Origin: a virus
Strand: one strand, 5' to 3'
Length of the DNA stretch: 64,000 bases
IMG/VR virus record: IMGVR_UViG_3300043353_000042
Span: 1-64,000 of that record
Both the position numbers and the translations under genes were made by a program. The notes beneath the pieces are model-generated. The model was given only the letters and a program-made list of their open reading frames with translations, had not been told where the DNA came from and made no database searches. Shown piece by piece: positions 11,411 through 60,773 of this stretch (positions within the stretch are counted from its first letter, which is position 1; each line of letters begins with the position of its first letter).

Positions 11411-11450
11411 CAGCACGTGTTGAAGCGACTAGGTATTCTCCTATATTGTA
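11411..11450 (+). promoter_or_regulatory. partial promoter-cassette motif (P0) ahead of the AAA+/VWA/sigma operon
   Basis: CAGCACGTGTTGAAGCGACTAGGTATTCTCCTATATT shares the GTTGAAGCGA core (11419-11428). -10 register unclear. Sits in an AT-richer 210-bp gap. Confidence 0.3.
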
Positions 11451-14389: not shown

Positions 14390-14405
14390 AGGGCCTTTGC
14401 ATTGC

Positions 14406-22176: not shown

Positions 22177-22181
22177 CTAGC

Positions 22182-31930: not shown

Positions 31931-32326
31931 TTGTCGAAGCTACGCGAAGCAGTTTCAAAGACCCACCTGAAGCGGCTCGCACAGGATGTTGTCGAGCCGA
32001 CGACGGAAGAGCGACGCACGATCCGACGGCACAGGCGCCGGGCGCGTGTCGCTGACGAACCGGTCAAGCTCGGCTCGCACCTGCCCGCCAACGGCAACGG
32101 AGGCGCACAGCATGCCACCGACGAGCCTGACGCCATACGTGAGGCGCGGACGCGCCTGCGCGCCATGATCGCGGCGGCGACCAAGGACGCGCCGAAGCCG
32201 TCAGTCGGGATCGTGCTGGCGATCGTGAACCAAGAGACAGGCAACCACGCGGCGGCGAACGCCCTGATCGACGAGTACGGGCTCGAACGGCTATTCGGTA
32301 TCAAGAAGTTCTGCCCAAATGCTTGA
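31931..32326 (+). CDS. hypothetical protein
   Basis: 131-aa ORF with TTG start. No motif recognised. Confidence 0.4.
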   Translation: MSKLREAVSKTHLKRLAQDVVEPTTEERRTIRRHRRRARVADEPVKLGSHLPANGNGGAQHATDEPDAIREARTRLRAMIAAATKDAPKPSVGIVLAIVNQETGNHAAANALIDEYGLERLFGIKKFCPNA

Positions 32327-32367
32327 CGCGTTGAAGCGAAGTGCTAGAGTTGAAGCGAAGGTAAGGT
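32321..32367 (+). promoter_or_regulatory. degenerate tandem copy of the promoter-cassette core (P1)
   Basis: GCGTTGAAGCGAAGTGCTAGAGTTGAAGCGAAGGTAAGGT then ATG 32368. GTTGAAGCGA occurs at 32330 and 32349. Spacing is atypical. Confidence 0.3.
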
Positions 32368-33355: not shown

Positions 33356-33450
33356 AATGCGGCTAGTCCGTATTCGTGCCGTCCTACTTCGCTACGTCGT
33401 GCGGTGAATCACCACGGGTGATTTGCTACGTTCCCAGTCGGCTACTGCGC

Positions 33451-34623: not shown

Positions 34624-34716
34624 CCCCTACGGGCGAGGTGAGCAGGCAAAGAAGAAAGAAGCTTTCGTCGCGAAAGCCTCTTTCGGCCGACATCGTCTCA
34701 CCTATGCCTACATCGC

Positions 34717-34751
34717 AAAGGCGTTGCGTTGAAGCGAACCCCTGCTAGTGT
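34717..34751 (+). promoter_or_regulatory. promoter cassette class I (P2)
   Basis: AAAGGCGTTGCGTTGAAGCGAACCCCTGCTAGTGT, 9 nt before GTG 34761. Confidence 0.55.
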
Positions 34752-34760
34752 CTGAGAGCC

Positions 34761-35243
34761 GTGTCAGTCAGCTTCATCGTTGACGTTGAAGTCCCGCGCA
34801 TACCGCGCCTCGAGCCATGTTTGTGCGCACAGATGGCTCCGCTGTGGAGTGCGATCTTTCAGGGCGACAGCGACGATTGGGACTCGTTGCGCGAGCATGC
34901 CAGTCCGGGCTGTGCGAGCTGCAAGGGAACAGGCGCCGAGAGGGTTGAGCACGACGAGCGCCCGCAAGTGAACTTCGCGAACGAGAACGCACACATCGTC
35001 GCGCTCGCGCTTGGAATCGACCTCGACGGCGGGCATGGAAGCATGGAGCTCGCCACCTTGCGCCGTGGACTGATTCGGGCCCGCAACGTGACTACCCCGG
35101 ACGAACTACGGGCTTACGAGTCGACCGGCCGAGTCTTTGTCCGAGGCTATGACCGGGCCGACCTCGACGCGGCGCTGACGCGCTTGCAAGGGCTCGTCGA
35201 AGCGGCGCAGCGAATCGGGGCGACTCGTATTCTGTGGCAGTAG
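34761..35243 (+). CDS. hypothetical protein
   Basis: 160-aa ORF directly behind P2. CASCKGTG motif. Confidence 0.5.
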   Translation: MSVSFIVDVEVPRIPRLEPCLCAQMAPLWSAIFQGDSDDWDSLREHASPGCASCKGTGAERVEHDERPQVNFANENAHIVALALGIDLDGGHGSMELATLRRGLIRARNVTTPDELRAYESTGRVFVRGYDRADLDAALTRLQGLVEAAQRIGATRILWQ

Positions 35244-35280
35244 GGCCGCGGCGCTCGCTGATGGGCGTTACTTGGCCGGC

Positions 35281-35601
35281 ATGCTCAGGACGCTATCTAG
35301 TGCGACATGTCGGATTGTGCACGGGCTGTGGGGCGCGGGCATGGCCGTGCGGCACGACGGCGGCACGTTGAAAGATGCTTTGGCGACATACCGCCTACTC
35401 GTCTCGGAGCACACCGAGGGTTTGACCGTCGCGGAAGCGTTCGCGATCGCGAGCAAGGCGCATGTGTACAAGATCGATCCGTTCGATCTGTGGATGGTGC
35501 TCGACGGCTATCACTGCGACGACCTTGACCATGCGGTGCTGAAGACACTCGAAATGAAGGCGCTGTACGACGCGCCGCCGACGATCGGGTCGGTGAACTG
35601 A
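35281..35601 (+). CDS. hypothetical protein
   Basis: ATG 35281 within ORF 35272..35601. Confidence 0.45.
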   Translation: MLRTLSSATCRIVHGLWGAGMAVRHDGGTLKDALATYRLLVSEHTEGLTVAEAFAIASKAHVYKIDPFDLWMVLDGYHCDDLDHAVLKTLEMKALYDAPPTIGSVN

Positions 35602-35637
35602 AAAAGTTGTTGCGTTGAAGCGCGCGCCTGCTAATCT
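35601..35637 (+). promoter_or_regulatory. promoter cassette class I (P3)
   Basis: AAAAAGTTGTTGCGTTGAAGCGCGCGCCTGCTAATCT. Leader begins GTACCTTGTCAGCAGCAAGG. Confidence 0.6.
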
Positions 35638-35672
35638 GTACCTTGTCAGCAGCAAGGAACGGGTAGCCAAGA

Positions 35673-35999
35673 ATGTCGATACGTATAGCCGATATGATTA
35701 GTGCGCAAATTGGACAGCGCGCGTTCGTGATGATGGGCGCGACGAATTTGCTCGGTGGCGAGAGTCACTTGCAGTTCAAGATCGGCTCAAACGGCAAGAA
35801 GGTTACCCACGTGACGGTGACGCTGACCGGCGACGATCTCTACACCGTGCGCTTCGATCGGGTCACGAAAATAGGCTTCAACGCGAAGACAGGCGCGACG
35901 ACGGGCGGAGTGAAGATGCTTCGCGAGGTCGAGTCAGTGTCAGTGGATCAACTGCGCAACGTGATCTCGGACAATACGGGCATGTACCTGTCGCTGTGA
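35673..35999 (+). CDS. hypothetical protein
   Basis: 108-aa ORF behind P3. Confidence 0.55.
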   Translation: MSIRIADMISAQIGQRAFVMMGATNLLGGESHLQFKIGSNGKKVTHVTVTLTGDDLYTVRFDRVTKIGFNAKTGATTGGVKMLREVESVSVDQLRNVISDNTGMYLSL

Positions 36000-36133
36000 A
36001 CCAAAGCAGACCAACCGCGGAAAGTTTCTTCCGAGTCTGGCTTGCGAAATCTCGATCTTCGGGCCATCGATAAGCCTTGTGGCGCGTAACCTAGCCCGCA
36101 CACACGATGGAAGAACCCGAGGAGTCGGTAATC

Positions 36134-36994
36134 ATGGCAGCTGCAATTATGCCGGTAAAACGTGGAAATCTGTATCAGTTCGATCCCAACGAGCCAGTGA
36201 TTGTCGGACTCGACACAAAGGACGGGCCCGAACACGAGCTTTGGGACGAGCGGATCCGGCTGCCGCTCGAAGAATCCATGGTGCTAAACATCATGGCGGT
36301 CGGCGTCAAAGAGACTGTGATCTTGCGCCTCAACAAGGGGGCCTCGCGTTACGAGGTCGTCGACGGCCGTGGTCGCATTCGCCACGCTCGCGAGGCGAAT
36401 AAGCGCCTAAAGAAGCTAGGCGAAGAGCTCGTGTATGTGCCGGCGCTTCTCGAACAGGGCGACGAAACGCACATGGCCGGGCTCGCGATCTCGCTGAATG
36501 AGATTCGACGCGACGACGACACGCTCACAAAGGCCGAGAAGTGCATGCGGCTCTTGCAGCGCAATGGCGGCGATCACAAGGCCGCGGCGATCGTCTTCGG
36601 CGTGTCGGTCGCGGCGATCAAGAATTGGGCCAAGGTTGCCGAGCTGACGCCGAAGGTCAAGCGAGCGGTCGCGAACGGCGAGATCAGCGCGTCAGCGGCG
36701 GCCGAGCTGCACGGACTCGAAAAGGAGGCGCAGATCGCCAAGCTCGATAAGCTCGTCGGGCACGCCAAGGCGAACGGGCGCAAGAAGGCGACCACGGCGA
36801 GCGCGAAGAAGGAGACGGGCAAGCGTACCGCGGTGCCGAAGCGCGTCTTGCTGAAGCTCGTAGGCGACGAAGAGCTGTCTTCGGGCGTGCCGCCTGAAGT
36901 CATTTTCGGGATCAAGCTCGCGCTCGGCTCACACCTGCCCGGGGAAACGTCGAAACTTGGAAAGTTGCTTGTGCAGGCGGGTTTCAAATACTAG
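36134..36994 (+). CDS. ParB/KorB-like DNA-binding protein, paralog 2
   Basis: Largely collinear with paralog 1, with long identical DNA stretches. Arginine patch altered to VVDGRGRIRHAREA. GGAG lies 8 nt before ATG 36134. Confidence 0.75.
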   Translation: MAAAIMPVKRGNLYQFDPNEPVIVGLDTKDGPEHELWDERIRLPLEESMVLNIMAVGVKETVILRLNKGASRYEVVDGRGRIRHAREANKRLKKLGEELVYVPALLEQGDETHMAGLAISLNEIRRDDDTLTKAEKCMRLLQRNGGDHKAAAIVFGVSVAAIKNWAKVAELTPKVKRAVANGEISASAAAELHGLEKEAQIAKLDKLVGHAKANGRKKATTASAKKETGKRTAVPKRVLLKLVGDEELSSGVPPEVIFGIKLALGSHLPGETSKLGKLLVQAGFKY

Positions 36995-37006
36995 AACGGT
37001 TCGCGC

Positions 37007-37063
37007 CTCGCGAGGATAGCGGCGTCTTGCTGCCCCCCTGCAGGTGGTCGCTATCCTCGCGGG
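37007..37063 (+). terminator. 13-bp perfect-stem hairpin after parB-like 2
   Basis: CGCGAGGATAGCG (37009-37021) pairs with CGCTATCCTCGCG (37049-37061), 27-nt loop. Confidence 0.45.
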
Positions 37064-37081
37064 GCACGAATCAGGAAAGGG

Positions 37082-37113
37082 TAGGGCGAGGTGCTTTGCG
37101 GCATCTCGCCCTA
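37082..37113 (+). terminator. 9-bp perfect-stem hairpin before the ligase gene
   Basis: TAGGGCGAG (37082-37090) pairs with CTCGCCCTA (37105-37113). Confidence 0.35.
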
Positions 37114-37136
37114 GCCATTTGTGAGGGGCCCGAACG

Positions 37137-38060
37137 ATGACGACCACAACGCGCTTTCGCCCCATGCTCGCGCCGTCCAAGTCGATCGATCCGGCCACGC
37201 TGACCTACCCCGTTTTCGCGAGTCCCAAGTACGACGGGATCCGCTGCGTCATACGCGACGGGCGCGCCATGTCCCGGTCGCTCAAGCCGATCCCGAACAA
37301 GCACATACGTGGCGCGCTCGAAGCCCTCGGACCGGACGCGGAGGGCCTCGACGGGGAAATCATGCTGCCGTATCCGGCGAAGTTCCCCGCGGTCAGTAGC
37401 GCGGTCATGGCGTTCGACATGCCGCCCCCTGCAGACTGGTTTTTCGTCGTGTTCGATCGCGTGCCTTTGCTCGCGACCGAGCCGTTTTCGTCGCGCTCGA
37501 ACGACGTCAAGCGCACCGTCGAAAAGCACGCATGGCCGCACATCGTCGTGTGTGAACAGCTATGGATCGACGCGCGCGAAACGCTCGACGACTACGAGGC
37601 GAAGGCGGTCGAGGCCGGGCACGAAGGGGTCATGTTGCGCGCGTTCAATGGCCCCTACAAGTTCGGGCGGGCCACGGAGCGGGAAGGGTACCTGTTCAAG
37701 CTGAAGCGCTTCACAGACAGCGAGGCAGAGATCGTCGGTGTGCTCGAAATGCAGCACAACAACAACGTGGCCTTCGTCGGCGAGCTCGGACAGACGAAGC
37801 GGCGCACGCTGAAGGAAGGCAAGGTCGACGGCGGCGTGATGGGCAAGCTCGTCGTGCGCGACCTGAAGAGCGGCGTCGAGTTCAAGATCGGCACGGGCTT
37901 CGACGCGAAGCAGCGCGCGCTCTGGTGGCGCTGTCGCGACATCCTAATCGGCCGGGTCGTGCGCTACCGCTATCAGGAGCACGGCCAGAAGGACAAGCCG
38001 AGGATCGCGAGCTTCCAAGGCTTCCGAGATCGGCGCGACATGGGTCCGGTCGGCGAGTGA
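37137..38060 (+). CDS. ATP-dependent DNA ligase
   Basis: Adenylation motif I SPKYDGIRC (KxDG), motif IV EGVMLR, motif V LFKLKRF. OB-fold C-terminus. Confidence 0.85.
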   Translation: MTTTTRFRPMLAPSKSIDPATLTYPVFASPKYDGIRCVIRDGRAMSRSLKPIPNKHIRGALEALGPDAEGLDGEIMLPYPAKFPAVSSAVMAFDMPPPADWFFVVFDRVPLLATEPFSSRSNDVKRTVEKHAWPHIVVCEQLWIDARETLDDYEAKAVEAGHEGVMLRAFNGPYKFGRATEREGYLFKLKRFTDSEAEIVGVLEMQHNNNVAFVGELGQTKRRTLKEGKVDGGVMGKLVVRDLKSGVEFKIGTGFDAKQRALWWRCRDILIGRVVRYRYQEHGQKDKPRIASFQGFRDRRDMGPVGE

Positions 38061-38226
38061 CTTGGCACGATTCTCCGGCCCCGGGCTGCCCGGTAGGGAC
38101 GCCCAGATAGCTAGCGTTTGGCGCGTACGCTGGACGCGTACATTCGCGCTAAATAATGCTCGAAAAGTTGTTGCGTTGAAGCGAAACGATGCTAATCTAT
38201 ATCTTGTCAGCAACGAACAACGGAGC
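38058..38226 (+). repeat. long repeat LR1 (stop codon, hairpin, GCGTAC palindromes, A/T patch, promoter, leader)
   Basis: About 169 bp, near-identical to 39652-39820. First ~130 bp also match 41625-41754. Begins at the TGA of the ligase gene. Confidence 0.9.
38162..38198 (+). promoter_or_regulatory. promoter cassette class I (P4)
   Basis: GAAAAGTTGTTGCGTTGAAGCGAAACGATGCTAATCT. Leader ATATCTTGTCAGCAACGAACAACGGAGC. Confidence 0.6.
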
Positions 38227-38232
38227 AATCGG

Positions 38233-38412
38233 GTGAACACAAGCGCGCATCGGTACTGGCTACTAACTGCTGACAACAAGGTCTTTTTGACCGCAAGCAC
38301 GCTCGAATGGGCTCGCCGCAAGGTGGCCGCGTTCGCCTTCTGCGCAGCGCTCCGGATCGAAGATCGCGACTGCACAGAACGCCTTGAAGAACGCGGAATC
38401 GTCGTAGTCTGA
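38233..38412 (+). CDS. hypothetical small protein
   Basis: GTG 38233, 8 nt after GGAGC in the conserved leader. 59 aa. Confidence 0.4.
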   Translation: MNTSAHRYWLLTADNKVFLTASTLEWARRKVAAFAFCAALRIEDRDCTERLEERGIVVV

Positions 38413-38432
38413 ACGGCGAACGGAAGTCGCTT

Positions 38433-38738
38433 TCAGAACCAGATGTATTCCTTTTCAGGGTCGCCGCCCGGTCGGCGGCGGCCCGACCCGATGTGCTTAT
38501 GCCAGCCTTCGTGCGGATCGCCTTTGCCGTCCCACAGCACAGCGGCACACAGACAGATGGCCAAATTGGGGTAGCAGTAGGCGTCGTGATAGTCGTCGGC
38601 GCCCACGTTGCCGATGCACAGGCGCACATTGAACATCTGTGGGACGACGGTCACTTCGTAGCCGTCTTCAAGTTCGCGGGCATACAAGATGCCAGGTCGT
38701 GGATTCAACGTACCGGGGTTCGTGTCGGTGTCGCTCAT
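38433..38738 (-). CDS. hypothetical protein (lone minus-strand gene in a plus-strand block)
   Basis: 101-aa ORF of normal composition, convergent with 38233..38412. Confidence 0.5.
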   Translation of the reverse strand: MSDTDTNPGTLNPRPGILYARELEDGYEVTVVPQMFNVRLCIGNVGADDYHDAYCYPNLAICLCAAVLWDGKGDPHEGWHKHIGSGRRRPGGDPEKEYIWF

Positions 38739-38779
38739 GGCGCCGCACGATAGCCGGCAAGGGTAGGATAGGGGAAGTC

Positions 38780-38974
38780 ATGAAGCAGGTTCGTAAGTTC
38801 GTTTCGCTCACAGTGGTTCGCGTCAGGCTCCGATTGGCCGATCTCTTGCTCGACGGCCTAGTTGCGGCCTTCGGTGAGTCGTGGCCGACGGTCATGCAAC
38901 GCGCGTTTATCGAGATGGAACGCAAAAATGCGGGCCTATCCGATGGCTTGAGCGTGGCGCCCGAGGCCAACTAA
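38780..38974 (+). CDS. hypothetical small protein
   Basis: ATG 38780 within ORF 38639..38974. 64 aa. Confidence 0.4.
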   Translation: MKQVRKFVSLTVVRVRLRLADLLLDGLVAAFGESWPTVMQRAFIEMERKNAGLSDGLSVAPEAN

Positions 38975-38975
38975 A

Positions 38976-39011
38976 GAAAGTTGTTGCGTTGAAGCGAACG
39001 CCTGCTAGTCT
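38976..39011 (+). promoter_or_regulatory. promoter cassette class I (P5)
   Basis: GAAAGTTGTTGCGTTGAAGCGAACGCCTGCTAGTCT. Followed by a ~150-nt leader carrying two structured elements. Confidence 0.6.
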
Positions 39012-39017
39012 GTCAGT

Positions 39018-39080
39018 TGTCGGAAGCGAAATGGCAGCGGCGGCCCGCACAGGAGCCCAATGCATGCAGCGCTTCCGACA
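39018..39080 (+). promoter_or_regulatory. 5'-leader RNA element copy A (11-bp closing stem, 38-nt invariant core)
   Basis: TGTCGGAAGCG (39018-39028) pairs with CGCTTCCGACA (39070-39080). Core AATGGCAGCGGCGGCCCGCACAGGAGCCCAATGCATGC at 39030-39067. Confidence 0.6.
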
Positions 39081-39137
39081 GCGACCGGGAATGGCAGCGG
39101 CGGCCCGCACAGGAGCCCAATGCATGCGCCCGGTCGC
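39081..39137 (+). promoter_or_regulatory. 5'-leader RNA element copy B (9-bp closing stem, same core)
   Basis: GCGACCGGG (39081-39089) pairs with CCCGGTCGC (39129-39137). Identical core at 39090-39127. Confidence 0.6.
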
Positions 39138-39169
39138 CTCGCGGCTGCACGACAGGAGAACAGACGAAG

Positions 39170-39457
39170 ATGACGCTCGAAGCACAAGCGACGGCCTTCT
39201 GTGAGGCGCTCAATGCGCGCTCGAACGCGCTCGCGGTCAAGCTCGGTCGCAAGCCGACCTACCGTAACTTTGGGTTCGAGCTCGGTCGCAAGTACGCGCG
39301 GATCTTTTGGTCGACCGACAGTGGTCAGAGGTCAGCGCTCGCGTTCGTCGACGCCGACGGCGTCGTGCGTCGTTCGGATAGCTGGAAAGCGGCCGGGCGC
39401 ATCCTAGGCCAACGTGACGCCGAAGCGGTCATCGCGCTCGTAGTCGGCCCGGTATGA
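39170..39457 (+). CDS. hypothetical protein
   Basis: ATG 39170 preceded by AGGAG. 95 aa. Confidence 0.5.
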   Translation: MTLEAQATAFCEALNARSNALAVKLGRKPTYRNFGFELGRKYARIFWSTDSGQRSALAFVDADGVVRRSDSWKAAGRILGQRDAEAVIALVVGPV

Positions 39458-39464
39458 TCCGGGC

Positions 39465-39653
39465 ATGGCCTGGAAGATCATCGAGATCGGGCTCGCGCGG
39501 GCGATGCTAGGGCTCGGGTGCCTCGGAAGCGTCGCGACGGTAGTCTGGGTCGTTGAGCGCGAGCTTCGGCGTCGTGCGCGCCTACGTCGCGATCGCGAGT
39601 GGTATCGCGCGCCCCCGAAAAGGCTGCCCAATCCCAAGAAGTGGCTGAACTGA
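39465..39653 (+). CDS. small membrane protein
   Basis: 62 aa. Hydrophobic LGLGCLGSVATVVWVV followed by an Arg-rich tail. Confidence 0.45.
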   Translation: MAWKIIEIGLARAMLGLGCLGSVATVVWVVERELRRRARLRRDREWYRAPPKRLPNPKKWLN

Positions 39654-39820
39654 CTTGGCACGATTCTCCGGGCCCGGGCTGCCCGGGGACGATGCCCAGA
39701 TAGCTAGCGTTTGGCGCGTACGCTGGATGCGTACATTCGCGCTAAATAATGCTCGAAAAGTTGTTGCGTTGAAGCGAAACGGTGCTAATCTATATCTTGT
39801 CAGCAACGAACAACGGAGCA
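39652..39820 (+). repeat. long repeat LR2
   Basis: Starts at the TGA of 39465..39653. Differs from LR1 at a few positions, e.g. CCCGGGCTGCCCGGGG versus CCGGGCTGCCCGGTAGGG. Confidence 0.9.
39755..39791 (+). promoter_or_regulatory. promoter cassette class I (P6)
   Basis: GAAAAGTTGTTGCGTTGAAGCGAAACGGTGCTAATCT. Confidence 0.6.
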
Positions 39821-39825
39821 CGGAA

Positions 39826-40080
39826 ATGGCGAGCGCGGTCGAGGCAATGGGCGAAGTGTACGGTTACTTGAACGATGGCAACGTCGCGGGCGCGCAAGCC
39901 GCGGTGTGCGCAATCGAGTCCGAAAGCAGCGCGCTTCCGAGCTGCGTATTCGAGCGCGTGCTTCGGGACGCGGTCAAGGCGGGTTGCCTCCTGCCCTTCT
40001 ATGCCGACTTCTGCGAGCGCGCTTACGGTCGCAAGGCGTTCGCGGGCATGCTCGCCGGGCTGACCGCACAAGCGGCCTGA
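39826..40080 (+). CDS. hypothetical protein
   Basis: ATG 39826 after leader GGAGCACGGAA. 84 aa. Confidence 0.5.
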   Translation: MASAVEAMGEVYGYLNDGNVAGAQAAVCAIESESSALPSCVFERVLRDAVKAGCLLPFYADFCERAYGRKAFAGMLAGLTAQAA

Positions 40081-40158
40081 AACAGGCGCACAGGCGCGAG
40101 CCAACGGGCCCGGGATCGCCTACACAGCGTCCGGGCTTTTCTGCATGTGCGACCGCTA

Positions 40159-40194
40159 GAAAGTTGTTGCGTTGAAGCGAACGGCTGCTAGTAT
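40159..40194 (+). promoter_or_regulatory. promoter cassette class I (P7), leaderless type
   Basis: GAAAGTTGTTGCGTTGAAGCGAACGGCTGCTAGTAT, then ATGGGT, then ATG 40201. Confidence 0.6.
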
Positions 40195-40200
40195 ATGGGT

Positions 40201-40440
40201 ATGGCAATCGACAAGACGACGCCCTACACGGTTCACGGCGTGCTCGCAGGCGCCTACGCGCGCGACATCAGCGCGACCAAGCTGCTGACGCATGCCTCGC
40301 AGGATGAAAGCGCGACGGCGGTGTGCAAGAAGGTCAAACAGTACAATCTGTGCGACATGGTCGAAGACGGCCCGGTCACGTGCCCGGTATGCCTACAGCG
40401 GATCGCGGCCCGTGGCCTGACGCGCAAAGTGTGCGAGTAA
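40201..40440 (+). CDS. hypothetical protein with CPVC motif
   Basis: ATG lies 6 nt after the -10-like hexamer. An in-frame ATG at 40195 is also possible. Confidence 0.5.
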   Translation: MAIDKTTPYTVHGVLAGAYARDISATKLLTHASQDESATAVCKKVKQYNLCDMVEDGPVTCPVCLQRIAARGLTRKVCE

Positions 40441-40449
40441 AGTACGGTC

Positions 40450-40486
40450 GAAAAGTTGTTGCGTTGAAGCGAAACCGCGTTAGAGT
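40450..40486 (+). promoter_or_regulatory. promoter cassette class I (P8), leaderless type
   Basis: GAAAAGTTGTTGCGTTGAAGCGAAACCGCGTTAGAGT, then ATACAC, then ATG 40493. Confidence 0.6.
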
Positions 40487-40492
40487 ATACAC

Positions 40493-40858
40493 ATGACGAC
40501 GACGAACAAAGTAGGCGACAGCGTAGTGTGCAACGGCCACCTTGGCACGATCAGTGCCGTGACCGATTACGGCATGGTCGAAGTGCAGCTCGAAGGCGGC
40601 ACGGTGTGCGTTGACCCGAGCGACTTGCAGCCGGGCAGCGTGTGGGACGTGATGGTCAAGTGCGCGCGTTCGGACATGCGGCTTGCGCGCAAGGAGGGCT
40701 CGATCCTGATTGCGCAGACACGTCGCGGCACGGTCGAGCTCACCTACAGCGAACGCGCCTACGAGATCAACGTCGACGGTCGTGGCGTCGGTCGTGCGTC
40801 GACGGTGAAAGCCGCTGAAGCCATGATCGCGCCCCTGTACCAGGTCGAGATCGGCTGA
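40493..40858 (+). CDS. hypothetical protein
   Basis: 121-aa ORF starting 6 nt after the P8 hexamer. Confidence 0.55.
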   Translation: MTTTNKVGDSVVCNGHLGTISAVTDYGMVEVQLEGGTVCVDPSDLQPGSVWDVMVKCARSDMRLARKEGSILIAQTRRGTVELTYSERAYEINVDGRGVGRASTVKAAEAMIAPLYQVEIG

Positions 40859-40905
40859 TACCGTCCCGCCAAGTCGGCGGAACGATTGAGCAAAGGGTGA
40901 TCGAT

Positions 40906-40942
40906 AAAAAGTTGTTGCGTTGAAGCGAAAGGCTGCTAGTCT
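40906..40942 (+). promoter_or_regulatory. promoter cassette class I (P9)
   Basis: AAAAAGTTGTTGCGTTGAAGCGAAAGGCTGCTAGTCT. Leader carries RNA element copy C. Confidence 0.6.
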
Positions 40943-40950
40943 GTGATGTG

Positions 40951-41009
40951 TCGGACGGGGAATGGCAGCGGCGGCCCGCACAGGAGCCCAATGCATGCGC
41001 CCCGTCGGA
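40951..41009 (+). promoter_or_regulatory. 5'-leader RNA element copy C (7+2-bp closing stem, same core)
   Basis: GACGGGG (40954-40960) pairs with CCCCGTC (41000-41006). Identical core at 40961-40998. Confidence 0.55.
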
Positions 41010-41038
41010 GCGAGCGGAAAGCAACTTCAGGGTAGAAG

Positions 41039-41398
41039 ATGGCATCGAAGAAGAAAGAAACCACAGACCTAAGCGTGAAGATCCTTGCCGGGATCCGCGC
41101 TGACCTGAACGCCACACGTGACGAACTCAAGCGCACAGGCGATGCGCTTCGCGCGGAGGTCGCACAGGTGAGTGAGCGGTTCGAACGGAGCGAGCATCGT
41201 CAGACAGACGCCGATGTGCGCGTCGCAACCGAGCTGACCGAGCTTGCAGGCGCGACGCACACTCTGATCGATGCGATCAAGTCGCTCGGCGCGGACATGC
41301 GCGAAGTCAAAGCGATCGTGTCGGACATTCGCGACGATCGTGCGCGCATGAACGCGCTCGAAGCTCGCATACAGCGCCTCGAAGCGAAGGCATCGTGA
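41039..41398 (+). CDS. coiled-coil protein
   Basis: 119-aa ORF with heptad-like Leu/Ala/Arg/Glu composition. Confidence 0.5.
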   Translation: MASKKKETTDLSVKILAGIRADLNATRDELKRTGDALRAEVAQVSERFERSEHRQTDADVRVATELTELAGATHTLIDAIKSLGADMREVKAIVSDIRDDRARMNALEARIQRLEAKAS

Positions 41399-41429
41399 CC
41401 GAGCGTGTGCCACGGAGTAGGGTGTCGGG

Positions 41430-41627
41430 ATGAAAGACGACAGGCAAGGCATCCGTGTGCCCGGTACGGACTTGGTGACCTACGGCTTTTCAGAGGCAGA
41501 GGTCTTATCGTGGCGTGCATGGACGTGCGAAAAGCACCGCGCTCACGGCTTCGATGCGAATCCAAATTCGCTCGGCTGTCCGTTCTGCGCACAGGAGGCG
41601 CGTACGCCGCCGCTGATCGGCGAGTGA
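41430..41627 (+). CDS. small protein with CPFC motif
   Basis: 65-aa ORF. Its stop TGA is the first base triplet of LR3. Confidence 0.45.
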   Translation: MKDDRQGIRVPGTDLVTYGFSEAEVLSWRAWTCEKHRAHGFDANPNSLGCPFCAQEARTPPLIGE

Positions 41628-41765
41628 CTTGGCACGATTCTCCGGCCCCGGGCTGCCCGGTAGGGACGCCCAGATAGCTAGCGTTTGGCGCGTACGCTGG
41701 ACGCGTACATTCGCGCTAAATAATGCTCGAAAAGTTGTTGCGTTGAAGCGAAACCCTGCTATTGT
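41625..41765 (+). repeat. long repeat LR3
   Basis: Identical to LR1 through GAAGCGAAAC, then diverges into a leaderless-type -10 region. Confidence 0.9.
41729..41765 (+). promoter_or_regulatory. promoter cassette class I (P10), leaderless type
   Basis: GAAAAGTTGTTGCGTTGAAGCGAAACCCTGCTATTGT, then ATGGGT, then ATG 41772. Confidence 0.6.
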
Positions 41766-41771
41766 ATGGGT

Positions 41772-42005
41772 ATGACGACGACGAGCACGGTTGACGCGAT
41801 TCGCAACAGCTACAAGGCGCTCATGACCGCGTGCCTGAAGAACCACAGCGACAAGCCCGCGGACTTCAACCGGAAAGTAGAAGGCCTGATGCATGAACTT
41901 GCGGACGGCGAACCGTACGAGATGACTGCGAAGTTCTACCTCCGCGCCGCTCAAGAAGTCGCCTACTACCAATATAACGTGAACTTCCGCAACGTTAGCT
42001 TGTGA
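41772..42005 (+). CDS. hypothetical protein
   Basis: ATG 6 nt after the hexamer. Alternative in-frame ATG at 41766. Confidence 0.5.
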   Translation: MTTTSTVDAIRNSYKALMTACLKNHSDKPADFNRKVEGLMHELADGEPYEMTAKFYLRAAQEVAYYQYNVNFRNVSL

Positions 42006-42034
42006 CCGGGGCCGTGCCAAACAGAGGAACGAAG

Positions 42035-42322
42035 ATGACGAACGCAGCTAAGACCATGAAACCGACCGAGATTTTCTACCTGTGCCGCAAGGGCGCGCCG
42101 GGTAGCGCTATGAAGCTCGATCGCGAGCCTACGGCGGCCGACCTTGAGTGCCTCGCGACGGCCGGGTTAGAGCTCGCAACCATCGGAGATTGCTTCAAAA
42201 AGACGATACGGTGCCCGGTCAATGGGGACGGCTACTGGTATACGCGCCGTGAGTTGCTCGACAGCGCTGGCGAGTGCGTAGGCTCGTTCGAGGTCGAGCA
42301 AGGCCCGCGCGGCGAGCTGTGA
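42035..42322 (+). CDS. hypothetical protein
   Basis: ATG 42035 preceded by GAGGAACGAAG. 95 aa. Confidence 0.5.
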   Translation: MTNAAKTMKPTEIFYLCRKGAPGSAMKLDREPTAADLECLATAGLELATIGDCFKKTIRCPVNGDGYWYTRRELLDSAGECVGSFEVEQGPRGEL

Positions 42323-42540
42323 TGCCCGCTGGCGCTCGCTGGCGCCCCTAGCCGGGCCGCTGACGCTCCTGCCCCTGCGCGCGCCCTGTGGTGTCCTGCG
42401 CACGGGCCCTGCGAGCGCTGGCGACCCTCGCCGATCGGCCCTCGCCGATCTGGCCCGCGCCGCTCGAACCCCGCGCCGTTCGACCCGCGCCGATACATGT
42501 GGGCTGTGTGCGCCTGCAGTGCGACCCGAAAAGCGTGCTC
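42323..42540. repeat. very GC-rich non-coding patch made of short tandem duplications
   Basis: GCTGGCGCTC/GCTGGCGCCC; CCCTCGCCGATCGG/CCCTCGCCGATCTGG; CCGCGCCGCTCGAA/CCCCGCGCCGTTCGA/CCCGCGCCGAT. Confidence 0.7.
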
Positions 42541-42577
42541 GAAAAGTTGTTGCGTTGAAGCGAAACGGCGCTAGGAT
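42541..42577 (+). promoter_or_regulatory. promoter cassette class I (P11), leaderless type
   Basis: GAAAAGTTGTTGCGTTGAAGCGAAACGGCGCTAGGAT, then ATGCCC, then ATG 42584. Confidence 0.6.
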
Positions 42578-42583
42578 ATGCCC

Positions 42584-42961
42584 ATGCACAACGGTTACCG
42601 ATTCGCGCAACTAAGCATCGGCGAGAGTCTGACGAGCCCTACCGTGTGCGAGTGCTGCGAGCGCGAGGATCTCAAGCGCACCGTCAAGCTCGTGAGCCCC
42701 GAAGGTCGTGCCGTGTGGTTCGGTACCGGTTGTGCGGCGCGCGCCATGGGCATCGCGCCGAAGCTCGTGCGCGCCGCTAAGCGGGACGCCGAAGCGACCG
42801 CGGTAGCCGAGCAAGATGCGATCGTGCGCGCGCAACGTGCGAGCGTTGACGCGGCTTGGCAAGCGTTCCTCGACGCAACGGCCGGAGTAGGCGAGCGGTT
42901 CAGCCAAATCGAGCGACTAGGCGGCTACAAGGTCGCGCGCGCACTGTTCGAAAAACGCTGA
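42584..42961 (+). CDS. hypothetical protein (CECC motif; C-terminal WQAFLD...GERF.QIERLGG module)
   Basis: ATG 6 nt after the hexamer. C-terminus resembles the product of 58159..58335 (-). Confidence 0.55.
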   Translation: MHNGYRFAQLSIGESLTSPTVCECCEREDLKRTVKLVSPEGRAVWFGTGCAARAMGIAPKLVRAAKRDAEATAVAEQDAIVRAQRASVDAAWQAFLDATAGVGERFSQIERLGGYKVARALFEKR

Positions 42962-42996
42962 TCTGAGTGCATCCGGAACTCTTACGCACGACTAGC

Positions 42997-43034
42997 GAAA
43001 AAGCTGTTGCGTTGAAGCGAAACGCTGCTAGTCT
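42997..43034 (+). promoter_or_regulatory. promoter cassette class I (P12)
   Basis: GAAAAAGCTGTTGCGTTGAAGCGAAACGCTGCTAGTCT. Leader GTGAGTTGTCAGCAACGC...CCGGAGCAAACGAAC then ATG. Confidence 0.6.
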
Positions 43035-43075
43035 GTGAGTTGTCAGCAACGCATCGCACTCCGGAGCAAACGAAC

Positions 43076-43444
43076 ATGACCAACCTCGCAGCCATCATCG
43101 TCGAAACCTTCACCATGGGCACGCTCACAGGCGATGTGTTCGTCGAACTACAAAACATCTTTCAGAACGTCGCGTCCGACATGGGCGCTACCTCAATCTC
43201 GCACATCAGCGTGCGCGCCCTGCAGATCCTCACGGATCGGGGCTTCGTGCAGACCTCGTACGACTACAAGGGCCATGCCAACGGCGTCATTCCGAGCGAG
43301 CGCGCGCAGGCGTACATGTATCTTGAGCTCGCGAGCGGCGGTCGCTGCATGGAGCCGCGCGACGCTTTCGACGCTCGCTTAGTCGTGCGTCGCCCGATGT
43401 GGTGCGAAGGAGCGAGCGGCCTAGGCGTGTCGGCGAGCGCCTGA
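43076..43444 (+). CDS. hypothetical protein
   Basis: ATG 43076 after GGAGCAAACGAAC. 122 aa. Confidence 0.55.
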   Translation: MTNLAAIIVETFTMGTLTGDVFVELQNIFQNVASDMGATSISHISVRALQILTDRGFVQTSYDYKGHANGVIPSERAQAYMYLELASGGRCMEPRDAFDARLVVRRPMWCEGASGLGVSASA

Positions 43445-43458
43445 TCGGCGAGTGAAAC

Positions 43459-43476
43459 CGGGCCCTTCGGGGCCCG
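43459..43476 (+). terminator. GC hairpin with TTCG loop
   Basis: CGGGCCC-TTCG-GGGCCCG, 7-bp stem, 15 nt after the stop at 43444. No T-tract. Confidence 0.45.
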
Positions 43477-43489
43477 CATCACGTCTAGT

Positions 43490-43527
43490 GAAAAAGTTGT
43501 TGCGTTGAAGCGAACCGGTGCTAGTCT
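43490..43527 (+). promoter_or_regulatory. promoter cassette class I (P13)
   Basis: GAAAAAGTTGTTGCGTTGAAGCGAACCGGTGCTAGTCT. Leader GTGAGTTGTCGGAAGCGAAACACGGAGCAAACGAAG then ATG. Confidence 0.6.
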
Positions 43528-43563
43528 GTGAGTTGTCGGAAGCGAAACACGGAGCAAACGAAG

Positions 43564-43800
43564 ATGACCTCGAACAACACCGCGACGAACGCACAGAGCA
43601 ACCTTCGCGCACCCTTCGCGGTGAGCGAGTCCGGCCGCTGGCACACGGCCGACGGTATCGAGGTGTGCGAGGGCCCGGCATGGCACGGCCGCTCGCCTGC
43701 GCGCCGCTACGTGGCGCAGCGTCTGATCGGTGGCCGCTGCGCATGGGGCGCGACCCGCGAAGCCGCTGCCGACGCTGTGCGCGCCTTGGCGGCCGAGTGA
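43564..43800 (+). CDS. hypothetical protein
   Basis: ATG 43564 after GGAGCAAACGAAG. 78 aa. Confidence 0.5.
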   Translation: MTSNNTATNAQSNLRAPFAVSESGRWHTADGIEVCEGPAWHGRSPARRYVAQRLIGGRCAWGATREAAADAVRALAAE

Positions 43801-43841
43801 AGCGCGCTTACCATGCGCGCTAACTGTGGAGGCGGAGCCCG

Positions 43842-44114
43842 ATGAAGACCGACATTGAAGAAGCAATTGCTACCGTACGCGATTGGCAATACGACGACGA
43901 CATCATGGTCGGTGACGCAGCCGTAGTGCTGTCAGCGGAGGTTGTCGCCTGTCATGCCGTCATGGCGCAGCTCTCGGCGTCCCTCACGAACTTGTGTGCG
44001 GCGGCCGAGAACTACCGCGATAGTGATTGTTCGCGCCAGCCTACAAGGGAGCTGAACGCCGCGCTTGCGGCGAGCCGGGCGATCGTGCCTGTGGCGCGCC
44101 CCTTGGTCGAATGA
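43842..44114 (+). CDS. hypothetical protein
   Basis: 90-aa ORF preceded by GGAGGCGGAG. Confidence 0.5.
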   Translation: MKTDIEEAIATVRDWQYDDDIMVGDAAVVLSAEVVACHAVMAQLSASLTNLCAAAENYRDSDCSRQPTRELNAALAASRAIVPVARPLVE

Positions 44115-44159
44115 TCGAGCGAGTTCAAGGAAGTACCGCGCATCGGCAAGAAAGTTGTT

Positions 44160-44195
44160 GCGTTGAAGCGAAACGCTGCTAGTCTTTACTTTGTC
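44160..44195 (+). promoter_or_regulatory. promoter cassette class I (P14)
   Basis: GAAAGTTGTTGCGTTGAAGCGAAACGCTGCTAGTCT. Leader TTACTTTGTCAGCAACGCAGCCCCGGAG. Confidence 0.6.
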
Positions 44196-44222
44196 AGCAA
44201 CGCAGCCCCGGAGTAACCGACC

Positions 44223-44603
44223 ATGACCATGAAGACCGACATCGCGATTACGGACATCATCAGCAAGACCGCCAAGCTTATCGCGAGCTTGCCGAACCAT
44301 GTGACGATGTCGGACTCGCGCGCGATGGCCTTCGGCGACACGTCGAGCGCTCTTACGCTGTGCGCGCTGTATCTCGCGGACTTCGTGACCACGAACGACA
44401 AAGCAGCGGCGCGCAAGTATCTTGCGATGGCGGTCAAGGTTTCGGACGCTGTGAGCTCGCTTGCGGCCTTCCGTGGCCGTGAATCGAAGGTCGTAGGCGA
44501 CACGCTCGTGATGGCGCAGCGCTCGCTTGTCGAGGCGCACAAGCTCTTTCAGGCGCATATCGACGCGCTCTTGAGCGCTTCGCGCGCGACGGTTCAGGCC
44601 TGA
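44223..44603 (+). CDS. hypothetical protein
   Basis: 126-aa ORF. GGAG lies 9 nt upstream of the ATG. Confidence 0.5.
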   Translation: MTMKTDIAITDIISKTAKLIASLPNHVTMSDSRAMAFGDTSSALTLCALYLADFVTTNDKAAARKYLAMAVKVSDAVSSLAAFRGRESKVVGDTLVMAQRSLVEAHKLFQAHIDALLSASRATVQA

Positions 44604-45062
44604 TCAATCGTCCCGATCGGGACGCCAGACTTTCAGGCGCGCCAGCGTAAGTGCGGTGATCACATCGTTCGGATGCTCGGTTTGCTGGCGAGCGTATTCG
44701 GCGGCATAGAACTTGCGCGCGCGATCGACGTACTCAGGCAAGCGCTTCGAACCGGGGTAGGCGCGCATGACCTCGGTTTGCGCGAACAGGTCGATCGACT
44801 CGTTCGCGATCAGCAACACGGTATTTTGCAGCGACAGGATCTGCGCGTGTTGCGTTTTCGTCTGGTCCTGCGCGTCTTTGGCGATGGTCGTACAGTCCGC
44901 GGTTATCTTCGTGACTTCGTCGGTGCTAGGTCGCGTCCGAAACCAAGTCGCGGTCGTCGTCCATGCTGTCGCCGCTGCGATCGTGATCACGGGCACGAAC
45001 AGTTTCGCGAGTGCTTTCCAGCGTTTGACCGTGTCGCTTGGGACGTGAATCGACTCCGACAT
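44604..45062 (-). CDS. membrane-anchored protein
   Basis: ATG at 45062 within ORF 44604..45182. TM segment LFVPVITIAAATAWTTTATWF. Convergent with 44223..44603 with zero spacing. Confidence 0.5.
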   Translation of the reverse strand: MSESIHVPSDTVKRWKALAKLFVPVITIAAATAWTTTATWFRTRPSTDEVTKITADCTTIAKDAQDQTKTQHAQILSLQNTVLLIANESIDLFAQTEVMRAYPGSKRLPEYVDRARKFYAAEYARQQTEHPNDVITALTLARLKVWRPDRDD

Positions 45063-45300
45063 GTGCGCCTCGTCGTGAAGCTCGCAAAAGTGACTTTCAG
45101 ACGTACCCCGGCGCACACGGCTTCGCTGACGCGCACTGACGGCTTCAGGCCGGTCGAGCCCGACGGATCGGCGCCTTCGCACGGGCCCTAGTGAGTGCAG
45201 GCGCTACGCAGGCGCCCGGGCGCGCGCATGGGCCTTCGCGGTCGATTGGGCGTCGCGTTTTCGTTGCTCGTCGCGACGATTCGGGCGAAAAGCATCTTTG

Positions 45301-45552
45301 ATGAAGCTGGACGACCTACGCGCGCGCCTCCGCGCGGACAAGCGCGCGATCACGAAGCCCAAAGAGCGGCCGAAGCCGAAGCGCCGTTACCGGTGCAGCA
45401 AGTGTCGCAAGCCGCGCGAGCCTGCGAACCTGACCGATCCCGATGTCGCGGAAATCATCAGGGAATCGAGCGGCACGCGTCCGACGCATGCCTACCGGTG
45501 TCGCGAGTGTCGGATCATTTGGCTCGCTTGTCCGGTGGTCGGTGCGAAATGA
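45301..45552 (+). CDS. MKL(D/E)(D/E)LR zinc-ribbon paralog 1
   Basis: MKLDDLRARL..., CSKC...CREC. Confidence 0.5.
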   Translation: MKLDDLRARLRADKRAITKPKERPKPKRRYRCSKCRKPREPANLTDPDVAEIIRESSGTRPTHAYRCRECRIIWLACPVVGAK

Positions 45553-45833
45553 AGCTCGAAGAACTTCGCCAGCGCCTGCGAGAACCGAAGCGCCGGAAGC
45601 CGGTCCCGAAGCTACGCAAGCGCCGGAAGCGCGCCGCTGCGAGTCCCCCGCAGCCGCCAATGCACCAAAACTGCCGATCGAGCGCTACGCCGCTCACTGC
45701 GAGCAAGAATCCGCGCGATTGGCTTACGAAAACGCTCGTCGCGCTGTGCGACAAGTGCGGCAAGTCGTTCACGCCCGATCTCAAGGTCGGCTACGTGCCC
45801 TCGACGTGCGCGAAGTGCGCGTCGTATCTGTGA
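45549..45833 (+). CDS. MKLEELR zinc-ribbon paralog 2
   Basis: ATGA overlap with paralog 1. CDKC...CAKC. Confidence 0.5.
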   Translation: MKLEELRQRLREPKRRKPVPKLRKRRKRAAASPPQPPMHQNCRSSATPLTASKNPRDWLTKTLVALCDKCGKSFTPDLKVGYVPSTCAKCASYL

Positions 45834-45841
45834 GGTGCGAA

Positions 45842-46210
45842 ATGAAGCTCGAAGACCTCCGCAAGCTGTACGAAGCGCCCGAACTGCCGAAACAGCCGAA
45901 AATGGAGGCGATCACAGGAACCGACCTCGCACATGGCCCGGACAGTGCCGCAATGATGCTTCGGTGCATAGAGTGCGACCTCGTGATGACGATCACGGAT
46001 CCTGCGAGCCCGACGCTTGTCCGCGCCCACTGTCCTAGATGCGACACAGGCTGCAGCATGTGCAAGCGGCTACGCGACGCTGACGGCAACACGCTCCGGA
46101 TACGCGCAACAGGCACCGAGAAGCGTAGGGTGTGTGACCAGTGTAGCTACGACTACTACGACATCCTAGCTGACCGTTTCACGTCGGTGAAAATCGGCGA
46201 TGAAGCTTGA
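45842..46210 (+). CDS. MKLEDLR zinc-ribbon paralog 3
   Basis: CIEC...CPRC...CSMC...CDQCSYDYYDILADRF. Confidence 0.5.
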   Translation: MKLEDLRKLYEAPELPKQPKMEAITGTDLAHGPDSAAMMLRCIECDLVMTITDPASPTLVRAHCPRCDTGCSMCKRLRDADGNTLRIRATGTEKRRVCDQCSYDYYDILADRFTSVKIGDEA

Positions 46211-57626: not shown

Positions 57627-57664
57627 AAACTAGCATGCGTTCGCTTCAACGCAACAACTTTTTG
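57627..57664 (-). promoter_or_regulatory. promoter cassette class I on minus strand (M1), leaderless type
   Basis: Minus-strand reading: AAAAAGTTGTTGCGTTGAAGCGAACGCATGCTAGTTT, then ATTAGC, then ATG. Confidence 0.6.
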
Positions 57665-58343: not shown

Positions 58344-58375
58344 ACCTTATCCGGTTCGCTTCAACGTGCAAAAGA
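58344..58375 (-). promoter_or_regulatory. promoter cassette class II (M2)
   Basis: Minus-strand reading: CTTTTGCACGTTGAAGCGAACCGGATAAGGT, then 8 nt, then ATG. Confidence 0.45.
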
Positions 58376-59231: not shown

Positions 59232-59256
59232 ACTGCTTTCGTCACGCCTTTCATTA

Positions 59257-59292
59257 TCAAGTATCGGTGCTTCGCTTCAACTTCTCAAGTTG
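59257..59292 (-). promoter_or_regulatory. divergent promoter-cassette copy (M3)
   Basis: Minus-strand reading: CTTGAGAAGTTGAAGCGAAGCACCGATACTTG. Leader with GAAAGG precedes ATG 59231. Confidence 0.35.
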
Positions 59293-60738: not shown

Positions 60739-60773
60739 AATCTAGCTCGTTCGCTTCAACGTGCAATGTTTTT
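60739..60773 (-). promoter_or_regulatory. promoter cassette class II (M5), leaderless type
   Basis: Minus-strand reading: AAAAACATTGCACGTTGAAGCGAACGAGCTAGATT, then CAATGC, then ATG. Confidence 0.55.

Follow-up and report, generated by a model that had tools for sequence, protein, structure and literature searches.

A repeated promoter-like cassette with an embedded asymmetric box in the genome of an uncultivated phage

The closest described counterparts of the element considered here are found in T4-type phages, whose early promoters include the PeSL cassettes (Arbiol et al. 2010, PMC2839356; Comeau et al. 2014, PMC4122927), in mycobacteriophage L5 and cluster A, with more than 20 asymmetric 13-mer operators or "stoperators" that are oriented with transcription and lie in some cases within early promoters (PMC9283540), and in phage P1, where 22 dispersed asymmetric 17-bp operators serve C1 (PMC8546580). 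The present analysis concerns a promoter-like cassette, termed class I, repeated within positions 1 to 64,000 of the IMG/VR virus record IMGVR_UViG_3300043353_000042; this whole stretch of 64,000 nucleotides is referred to as the window. In the best explanation, held with middling confidence, the cassettes would be early promoters of the host RNA polymerase (RNAP), each with an embedded asymmetric operator, the box GTTGAAGCGA(A).

The resemblance to the PeSL cassettes extends to dozens of near-identical, strong sigma70-like promoters, an A/T-rich upstream block, small orphan genes in hyperplastic regions, and modules that are gained or lost at the cassettes. The defining stem-loop terminator is, however, absent here (z near 0). 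No stable or shared hairpin was found in the seven cassettes folded (z = -0.2 to +1.1), a terminator scan fell below shuffled expectation, and the additional element is instead a non-palindromic 10-11-bp box. Half of the transcripts are predicted to be leaderless, as opposed to the Shine-Dalgarno starts of the T4 system, and the genome, at 62% G+C in the window, is not T4-like. Because the stem-loop is absent, the cassette is not filed as PeSL.

With L5 the window shares more than 20 short asymmetric sites oriented with transcription, and L5 provides a precedent for a monomeric repressor that silences many units. Unlike in L5, every non-coding box is situated inside a promoter-like site and no free-standing stoperator is present; the box is unrelated in sequence to the L5 sites, and nothing resembling the L5 repressor was recognised. 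As in P1, a genome of ~100 kb carries ParB-type and tyrosine-recombinase genes and many dispersed asymmetric sites over separate operons, if the box indeed acts as an operator. The box is nevertheless shorter, occupies a nearly fixed place in a stereotyped promoter and is unrelated in sequence, and no homolog of C1, Coi or Lxc was found.

Middle promoters of T4 have no -35 element; their MotA box lies 12 +/- 1 bp from the -10. Class I likewise has an invariant element at about -30 next to a sigma70 -10, but here the -35 TTG and an UP-like tract are conserved and the box lies 8-16 bp from the -10. Finally, as in the SPO1 gp28, phiEco32 gp36 and T4 gp55 systems, the phage encodes its own divergent sigma factor. 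The promoters of those systems differ from the host consensus, whereas class I fits the primary-sigma consensus at every contact, and the late genes are cassette-free.

The class-I cassette and its predicted start sites

The pattern TTGCGTTGAAGCG-N7-GCTANNNT (at most one mismatch) occurs 14 times in the window, with 13 plus-strand copies spread over 34724-44185 and a single minus-strand copy at 57627-57654. It was matched in 0 of 100 dinucleotide-preserving shuffles, so that none is expected by chance, and a position weight matrix built from the 14 copies scores them at 49-64 bits and the rest of the window at no more than 12 bits. The repeat first noticed in a sequence-only reading of the window is thus real, and the core positions listed there are right except for the last on the plus strand, which lies at 44162-44171 rather than 44172; the core at 35614 is correctly placed but carries one mismatch (GTTGAAGCGC). 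Its claim that about 24 consecutive nucleotides are invariant was overstated, as 14 nt (GTTGCGTTGAAGCG) are invariant in 14/14 copies and 22 nt (AAAGTTGTTGCGTTGAAGCGAA) are identical in 11/14. Every copy points in the same direction as the next open reading frame (ORF). These downstream genes, described as tiny and uncharacterised, are not all so, since a ParB-like gene and one for an ATP-dependent DNA ligase follow the copy at 35614. The proposed regulon of about 20 mini-genes is roughly right in number, but also takes in these two genes and probably a cobS-cobT-sigma-DnaE unit. The 14 class-I cassettes, each given from A-tract to -10, are as follows (UTR type denotes a transcript with an untranslated region ahead of the gene).

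34715..34751 (+), -10 TAGTGT; gene 34761-35243, with GTG 9 nt past the hexamer
35601..35637 (+), core GTTGAAGCGC, -10 TAATCT; UTR type; 35673-35999, then ParB-like gene 36107-36994 and DNA ligase 37137-38060
38162..38198 (+), -10 TAATCT; UTR type with GGAG Shine-Dalgarno; ~110-nt conserved non-coding element upstream
38975..39011 (+), -10 TAGTCT; two tandem conserved hairpins open the transcript
39755..39791 (+), -10 TAATCT; UTR type; gene 39826-40080
40158..40194 (+), -10 TAGTAT; predicted leaderless, ATG 40201; gene 40201-40440
40450..40486 (+), -10 GTTAGAGT; predicted leaderless, ATG 40493; gene 40493-40858
40906..40942 (+), -10 TAGTCT; one conserved hairpin opens the transcript, then gene 41039-41398
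41729..41765 (+), -10 TATTGT; predicted leaderless, ATG 41772; gene 41772-42005
42541..42577 (+), -10 TAGGAT; predicted leaderless, ATG 42584; gene 42584-42961
42998..43034 (+), -10 TAGTCT; UTR type; gene 43073-43444
43491..43527 (+), -10 TAGTCT; UTR type; gene 43564-43800
44149..44185 (+), -10 TAGTCT; UTR type; gene 44223-44603
57627..57663 (-), -10 TAGTTT; predicted leaderless, ATG 57620; gene 57219-57620, DUF6011

The same cassette is present in dozens of copies in four IMG/VR contigs of related phages, and class-I statistics were drawn from 58 copies, 14 in the window and 44 in related contigs. Within the 64 kb no second repeated promoter class was found, the only other repeat family being an iteron cluster at 47-48.5 kb, and 12 kb of tail genes in a relative hold no cassette. 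Rfam returned nothing at gathering thresholds, with only chance-level matches near the cassettes, and a literature search for the core sequence retrieved only unrelated primers.

The frame TTGCGT-N16-TAnnnT is present in 14/14 window copies, and the sequence-only reading had placed TTGCGT correctly at 16 nt before the hexamer. Across the 58 copies, AAAAA at -43..-39 is 90-100% conserved, G-14 is present in 100% and C-13 in 90%, and T-15 occurs in most window copies. The conserved positions outside the box are accordingly the A-tract at -43..-39, TTG at -34..-32, G-14/C-13, T-12, A-11 and T-7. At these positions, the sigma70 holoenzyme makes its contacts through the C-terminal domain of the alpha subunit, sigma region 4.2, region 3.0 and regions 2.3-2.4.

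An indirect indication of the start site is provided by the downstream genes. In 30 of the 58 copies an ATG sits exactly 6 nt past TAnnnT, and in 2 more it sits 7 nt past, whereas fewer than one such copy would be expected by chance (our estimate from base composition). An ATG 7 nt past the hexamer is seen in the ortholog of the 34715 cassette (related contig L004, 9523, minus strand). In the window, the ATGs 6 nt past the hexamer open ORFs of 69-133 codons with the high third-position G+C that is typical of coding sequence in this genome. Because of this exact spacing, the only economical reading is that TAnnnT is the -10, that transcription would start at the A of the ATG and that the predicted mRNAs are leaderless. 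The remaining class-I copies have in common TTGTC(A/G)G at the start region and a leader of 30-40 nt with a GGAG Shine-Dalgarno sequence. Together with the 16-bp distance from TTG to TAnnnT, which is held by compensating indels (see below), the ATG spacing strongly supports the interpretation of the cassette as a predicted promoter with a real -10 and -35, as had been proposed. That this promoter is read by the holoenzyme of the host primary sigma appears probable from its sequence.

Other promoter types fit poorly. A sigma54 promoter was rejected as GG is absent at -24, and an extracytoplasmic-function sigma reading (TGAAGC-N16-xTGxGT) would place the start downstream of the conserved ATGs. 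A promoter of a T7-like or N4-like single-subunit RNAP was rejected on the variable N5 that splits the conservation, the TAnnnT pattern and the lack of a hairpin; no gene for a phage RNAP turned up in the scanned ORFs of the window.

The box as a separable module

The exact 10-mer box occurs 21 times in the 64 kb, plus the one variant at 35614 already mentioned. The earlier list of sites omitted exact copies at 11419, 32330 and 32349 (+) and at 58356, 59272, 59808 and 60751 (-). Twenty of the 21 exact boxes fall in intergenic sites that resemble promoters, and point the same way as the gene that follows; the lone coding copy, at 6067 (-), is accounted for by protein conservation, as a relative conserves it as protein sequence. 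Outside class I, the promoters that contain the box are the following.

58344..58371 (-), variant promoter TTGCAC-N16-TAAGGT; box displaced by 2 nt away from the -35 relative to class I; ATG 8 nt past the hexamer
59796..59823 (-), variant promoter TTGCAC-N16-TAGATT; box +2; predicted leaderless, ATG 59789; gene 59544-59789
60739..60766 (-), variant promoter TTGCAC-N16-TAGATT; box +2; predicted leaderless, ATG 60732; gene 60523-60732
59253..59281 (-), variant in which TTGAAG of the box is the -35, then N16 and GATAAT; leads to 58869-59231; spacing read from the sequence
32323..32358 (+), variant promoter TTGACG-N16-TAGAGT; box +3; a second box at 32349-32358 overlaps -10/+1; gene 32368-33321
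11419..11447 (+), box promoter ahead of cobS-cobT-sigma, with TTGAAG of the box as the -35, then N16 and TATATT; box kept in distant relatives

The class-I box begins after the first 4 nt of the -35 hexamer (TTGC|GTTGAAGCGA), and 8 nt lie between its end and TAnnnT. In the three minus-strand promoters at 58371, 59823 and 60766 it follows a complete hexamer (TTGCAC|GTTGAAGCGA), with just 6 nt remaining to TAnnnT, and in the 32323 promoter (TTGACGC|GTTGAAGCGA) only 5 nt remain. The spacer from TTG to TAnnnT is nevertheless 16 bp in all of these, the displacement of the box being compensated downstream (+2/-2 and +3/-3, respectively). In total, the box is found in five registers within promoters, of which three are spacer registers that keep TTG-N16-TAnnnT, and its TTGAAG lies 8, 9, 11 or 16 bp from TAnnnT depending on the promoter. 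As the spacer stays at 16 bp across these box registers, it is the promoter frame that is constant and the box that slides within it.

The 32323 promoter is the only two-box promoter in the window. Its ortholog in a relative (contig L014, 2609) has a single box, which is intact in the frame TTGACA-N16-TAGAGT. The downstream product (32368-33321, 317 aa) contains several CxxC and CxxCxGxG motifs resembling DnaJ-type zinc fingers, and has no family match and no PDB match.

Identity by region was determined for nine orthologous cassette pairs from the window and its relatives. The box (-30..-20) is identical at 98/99 positions, a figure somewhat inflated as the pairs were anchored on the box, and TTGC (-34..-31) at 36/36; G-14/C-13 is kept at 17/18, and TA and T-7 at 100%. 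By comparison, identity falls to 47% in the intervening N5 (-19..-15), 48% at the inner -10 positions (-10..-8), 39% at -6..-1 and 28% in the upstream flank. This difference between box and N5 indicates that selection holds the box at each copy, as opposed to recent copying. The argument of the sequence-only reading that conservation exceeds the needs of sigma70 therefore stands for the box, but not for the conserved positions outside it, which are those of primary-sigma contacts.

Candidate readers of the cassette and the box

The analysis shows the repeat and how it is built, the distance to the ATGs, the conservation held by selection, and the fold of the sigma described below; we infer the use of host RNAP, the binding of a protein at the box, and the sign and timing of its action. 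Each cassette would constitute a complete, strong primary-sigma promoter (UP-like A-tract, TTGCGT, 16-bp spacer, G-14/C-13 and TAnnnT), most likely read by the host holoenzyme and starting a separate transcript ahead of almost all small early gene modules. Leaderless mRNAs, with the A of the ATG as first base, would make up about half of these transcripts, and the others would carry a short common 5' leader. The box in the spacer may then be the operator of one phage-encoded DNA-binding protein that governs all non-late promoters jointly. The binding of a separate protein at the box is slightly favoured, and of the dedicated recognition factors suggested in the sequence-only reading, a factor binding GTTGAAGCGAA is preferred over the phage sigma. 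The box protein would most likely be a repressor that acts by occlusion, in the prophage state or at the early-to-late switch, a role favoured over that of a geometry-dependent activator because the register of the box varies. The cassettes would also mark the borders at which gene modules come and go, and the phage sigma more probably serves the cassette-free late genes.

A repressor would be plausible if the phage is temperate, as ~20 strong promoters would need silencing. A temperate lifestyle is possible in view of an integrase-like gene, an Xis-like gene and two ParB-like genes. The Xis-like HTH_17 protein (62620-62976) is encoded beside the divergently placed integrase-like gene, which is cut by the end of the window and whose product is 518 aa in a matching contig; the pair lies at 62620-64000 in the window and at 10712-12538 in L015. 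With the DUF1643 gene at 61371-61985, these genes suggest a temperate or mobile module.

Several observations weigh against this explanation, in addition to the anchoring of the orthologous pairs on the box. The label "sigma70-type" rests on the Escherichia coli paradigm, which may not be that of the host. No repressor candidate emerged from Pfam and PHROG scans of ~70 ORFs, many of them orphans; these returned only ParB-like helix-turn-helix (HTH) proteins, one Xis-like HTH protein and the sigma, and no match to the L5 gp71-like or P1 C1-like repressor families. Nearly all good TTG-N16-18-TAnnnT sites in the 64 kb carry the box, an observation that also counts in favour of the explanation. 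A box-free TTGCCT-N16-TAATCT site at 33557, ahead of the duplicated ParB-like gene, would mean that the frame works without the box if it is active; this site aside, there is no good box-free promoter in the window, and the box could be an obligatory activator or sigma element and not a repressor site. Lastly, a box ahead of the sigma operon and the invariant sigma4 helix are also predicted by autoregulation of the sigma.

The phage sigma is encoded within the unit that follows the box at 11419.

14397..15137 (+), divergent sigma70-family protein; 246-codon ORF, 243 aa from ATG 14406; sigma2-like and sigma4-like parts

Although this product has no Pfam or PHROG match, it is named a sigma-70 family protein by JGI, and a profile of 25 homologs matched only RpoD, SigA, SigB and SigH chains in the PDB (best E 0.0018), with the region 2.2 motif aligned. 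In the AlphaFold (AF2) model (pLDDT, predicted local distance difference test, 81), 49 of the 50 listed Foldseek matches are sigma-factor chains or models. The call of a sigma-like protein at 14406-15137 made from sequence was hence correct, and the modelled fold identifies the protein as a true sigma factor, albeit a divergent one. At the positions of sigma70 W433/W434 it has T and A, no separate sigma3-like domain is evident between the two folded parts of the model, and the sigma4 recognition helix (S203, N205, D208, W209, A210, R215) is invariant across the family. Directly following and overlapping the sigma gene is that of a 309-aa protein (15134-16063), the better conserved of the two, with 77-90% identity against 60-80% for the sigma; the N-terminus of the 309-aa protein is Cys-rich and of low confidence, and it has no PDB sequence match and no fold match.

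RNAP carrying this sigma could itself read the cassettes, with GTTGAAGCGA as a -35-like element and GCTAnnnT as the -10, in a middle regulon with positive autoregulation through the box ahead of cobS-cobT-sigma. In favour of this, the protein truly belongs to the sigma70 family and is conserved throughout the relatives, and on our reading its invariant sigma4 helix differs from the residues with which sigma70 reads TTGACA, making a new -35 specificity plausible. Moreover, the box is retained upstream of cobS in relatives whose sigma is just 48-68% identical (lowest 48-51%), and almost no good promoter lacks it. Against this, TTGAAG stands 8, 9, 11 or 16 bp from the -10 while the upstream TTG is always at 16 bp, an arrangement that a sigma4 docked on the beta-flap cannot serve. 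T-12, A-11, T-7 and G-14 constitute a primary-sigma signature, for which the phage protein lacks W433/W434 and, in the case of G-14, a sigma3-like domain; and the first genes need transcription before any phage sigma exists, yet no other abundant promoter class is present in the 64 kb. With W433/W434 replaced, no sigma3-like domain and the box at four distances from the -10, the phage sigma is an unlikely reader of class I.

A related view, on which we place a similarly low probability, is that the box, as an element centred at -25, is recognised by an undescribed phage transcription system that switches on leaderless early mRNAs, perhaps in a Gram-negative host. Its reader may be a new factor of the sigma-appropriation type or else the two-domain orphan sigma, perhaps together with the adjacent 309-aa protein.

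It is improbable that the box binds an activator that redirects host RNAP, by a MotA/AsiA-like appropriation or otherwise from the -30 region, with class I as a middle rather than an early class. Such an activator would account for an invariant element centred near -25 to -30 beside a good -10, as in T4 middle promoters, for the presence of the box in virtually every promoter, and for certain related copies (TAGC variants, contig L002) that drop the -35 TTG and keep the box together with a TGn extended -10. A promoter of the sigma-appropriation type would, however, need neither the -35 TTG nor the UP-like A-tract, both of which are conserved and correctly spaced. Furthermore, register shifts of 2-3 bp, and of at least 5 where the box overlaps the -35, would rotate an activator around the helix, and no MotA or AsiA family match was found in the Pfam and PHROG scans.

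The cassettes might alternatively need no dedicated factor, the whole being tuned to the host polymerase and kept uniform by recombination among copies. In T4-type phages, hyperplastic regions do contain ~50 strong sigma70 early cassettes that are almost identical (PMC2839356). In the window the array is likewise mosaic, with modules gained and lost at cassettes, and the longer flanks common to some copies speak for recent duplication. Homogenisation would also have evened out N5 and the inner -10, however, which it has not (47-48%, against 99% for the box), and the box remains intact with different -35 hexamers and in different registers, as would not be the case for a spacer required only for its shape. 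To our knowledge, contacts between RNAP and the spacer do not specify 10-11 bp, which also counts against this explanation; it is accordingly given little weight. A non-transcriptional signal, such as a mobile repeat, nick site, Chi-like recombination signal or replication or packaging site, is very improbable: the box is asymmetric, it faces opposite ways in the two arms of the window, and its GAAGCG resembles some Gram-positive Chi sequences, but each non-coding copy lies between a TTG and a TAnnnT spaced as in a promoter, points towards the next gene and is often 6 nt from its ATG, a geometry on which a nick or Chi-like site was rejected, and there are no terminal inverted repeats, target duplications or stable hairpins.

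The early array, its genomic setting and its significance

The plus-strand cassettes punctuate a hyperplastic array that, together with further repeated elements in and near it, is listed here.

34715..46210 (+), hyperplastic array of ~25 mostly orphan genes, punctuated by 13 plus-strand cassettes
39017-39077, 39078-39136 and 40948-41010, and in relatives L002 4226-4300 and 5224-5298, L004 3620-3695 (-) and L005 12480-12554 (-), copies of a ~55-nt hairpin
47817-47844, 47876-47903, 47941-47968 and 48507-48534 (+), examples of the iteron; inverted copies at 47230-47600 and 47750

Compared with relatives, the array keeps its order but is a mosaic, in which stretches of homology start at cassettes and entire promoter-gene modules are either there or missing. 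The ~110-nt conserved non-coding element occurs in three copies (38058-38165, 39651-39758, 41625-41732), each reaching from a stop codon into a cassette, and folds no better than shuffles (z = -1.0). The ~55-nt conserved RNA hairpin, with core GGCAGCGGCGGCCCGCACAGGAGCCCAAUGCAUGC, lies at the 5' end of the transcripts of two class-I promoters. Its outer stem varies in sequence while pairing is kept, with compensatory changes in 5/18 pairs among 7 copies, and it has no Rfam match. In related contig L004, cassettes at 8306 (-) and 3127 (-) are followed by a conserved GGAC(A/T)TAGGGGCCTCGAC and no start codon; a small non-coding RNA may be made here.

Two paralogous ParB-like HTH proteins (33781-34623 and 36107-36994) share 75-80% DNA identity over parts of their genes, and relatives have one copy. 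Ahead of the upstream copy, a 460-bp non-coding stretch (33321-33781) contains GCAGACTTTGC repeats as well as the 33557 site. At the strand switch (46500-48550), ~2 kb of non-coding DNA holds at least 14 copies, in both orientations, of a ~17-nt iteron, GTTCA-N-A-Y-AGTTACCCGG. This region is possibly an origin, centromere or terminus, with the ParB-like proteins as putative binders. A gene at ~52062-52457 (+), placed from the identical contig L015 (67-462), encodes a product that matches Pfam Acb2_Tad1_hairpin, a family of anti-CBASS and anti-Thoeris sponges, and thus represents an anti-defence gene within the small-gene region.

The phage is uncultivated, with a genome of ~108 kb, and a 100%-identical protein assigns the window to a JGI metagenome contig of 107,690 bp. 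The window contains a replication module (UvsW-like and DnaB-like helicases, primase, CobS/CobT-like ATPases, DnaE, RecA, SbcCD, flap nuclease, uracil-DNA glycosylase, dCTP deaminase and ligase); no tRNA genes were found in it. Among ~50,000 deposited phage genomes, no close relative was detected by megablast or tblastn, and the window DnaE is only ~33% identical to known phage proteins. Distant synteny is shared with 108-109-kb Stenotrophomonas phages, in which no comparable repeat is present, and 185,579 GTDB genomes yielded neither sigma relatives nor a match to a 21-mer of the motif.

Likely lysis genes are located at 3062-3902, the first product having two N-terminal transmembrane segments and a coiled coil, and the second (163 aa) an N-terminal lipobox-like signal (PRARAC) and a C-terminal transmembrane segment in a u-spanin-like layout. 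A Gram-negative host is hinted at only by this u-spanin-like gene and the Stenotrophomonas-phage synteny. The 697-aa ORF at 39-2132, which is 38% identical to the gene that ends the tail region of a relative, holds three tandem 126-nt repeats at 492-916 (68-80% identity). In a further long ORF (21684-23918), repeats rich in Asp/Glu and in Lys extend over ~1 kb, with periods of 12 and 105-126 nt and an AT skew of 0.5, and part of the ORF weakly matches a PHROG resembling single-stranded DNA-binding proteins.

As judged from sequence, what is new here is a variant, in an uncultivated lineage, on regulatory architectures already known from phages, unusual in the large number of predicted leaderless starts; no current view of phage transcription is overturned. 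If the explanation favoured here is true, ~20 near-identical strong promoters would differ only in the presence of an mRNA leader and share one common embedded control box, such that one probe would suit all sites in a search for the regulator. The phage would then offer a system for studying mass leaderless translation, and a family of strong, co-regulated promoter parts for high-GC hosts. It would also provide a second example, outside the T4-like phages, of cassettes that border mobile early-gene modules, one of them Acb2/Tad1-like.

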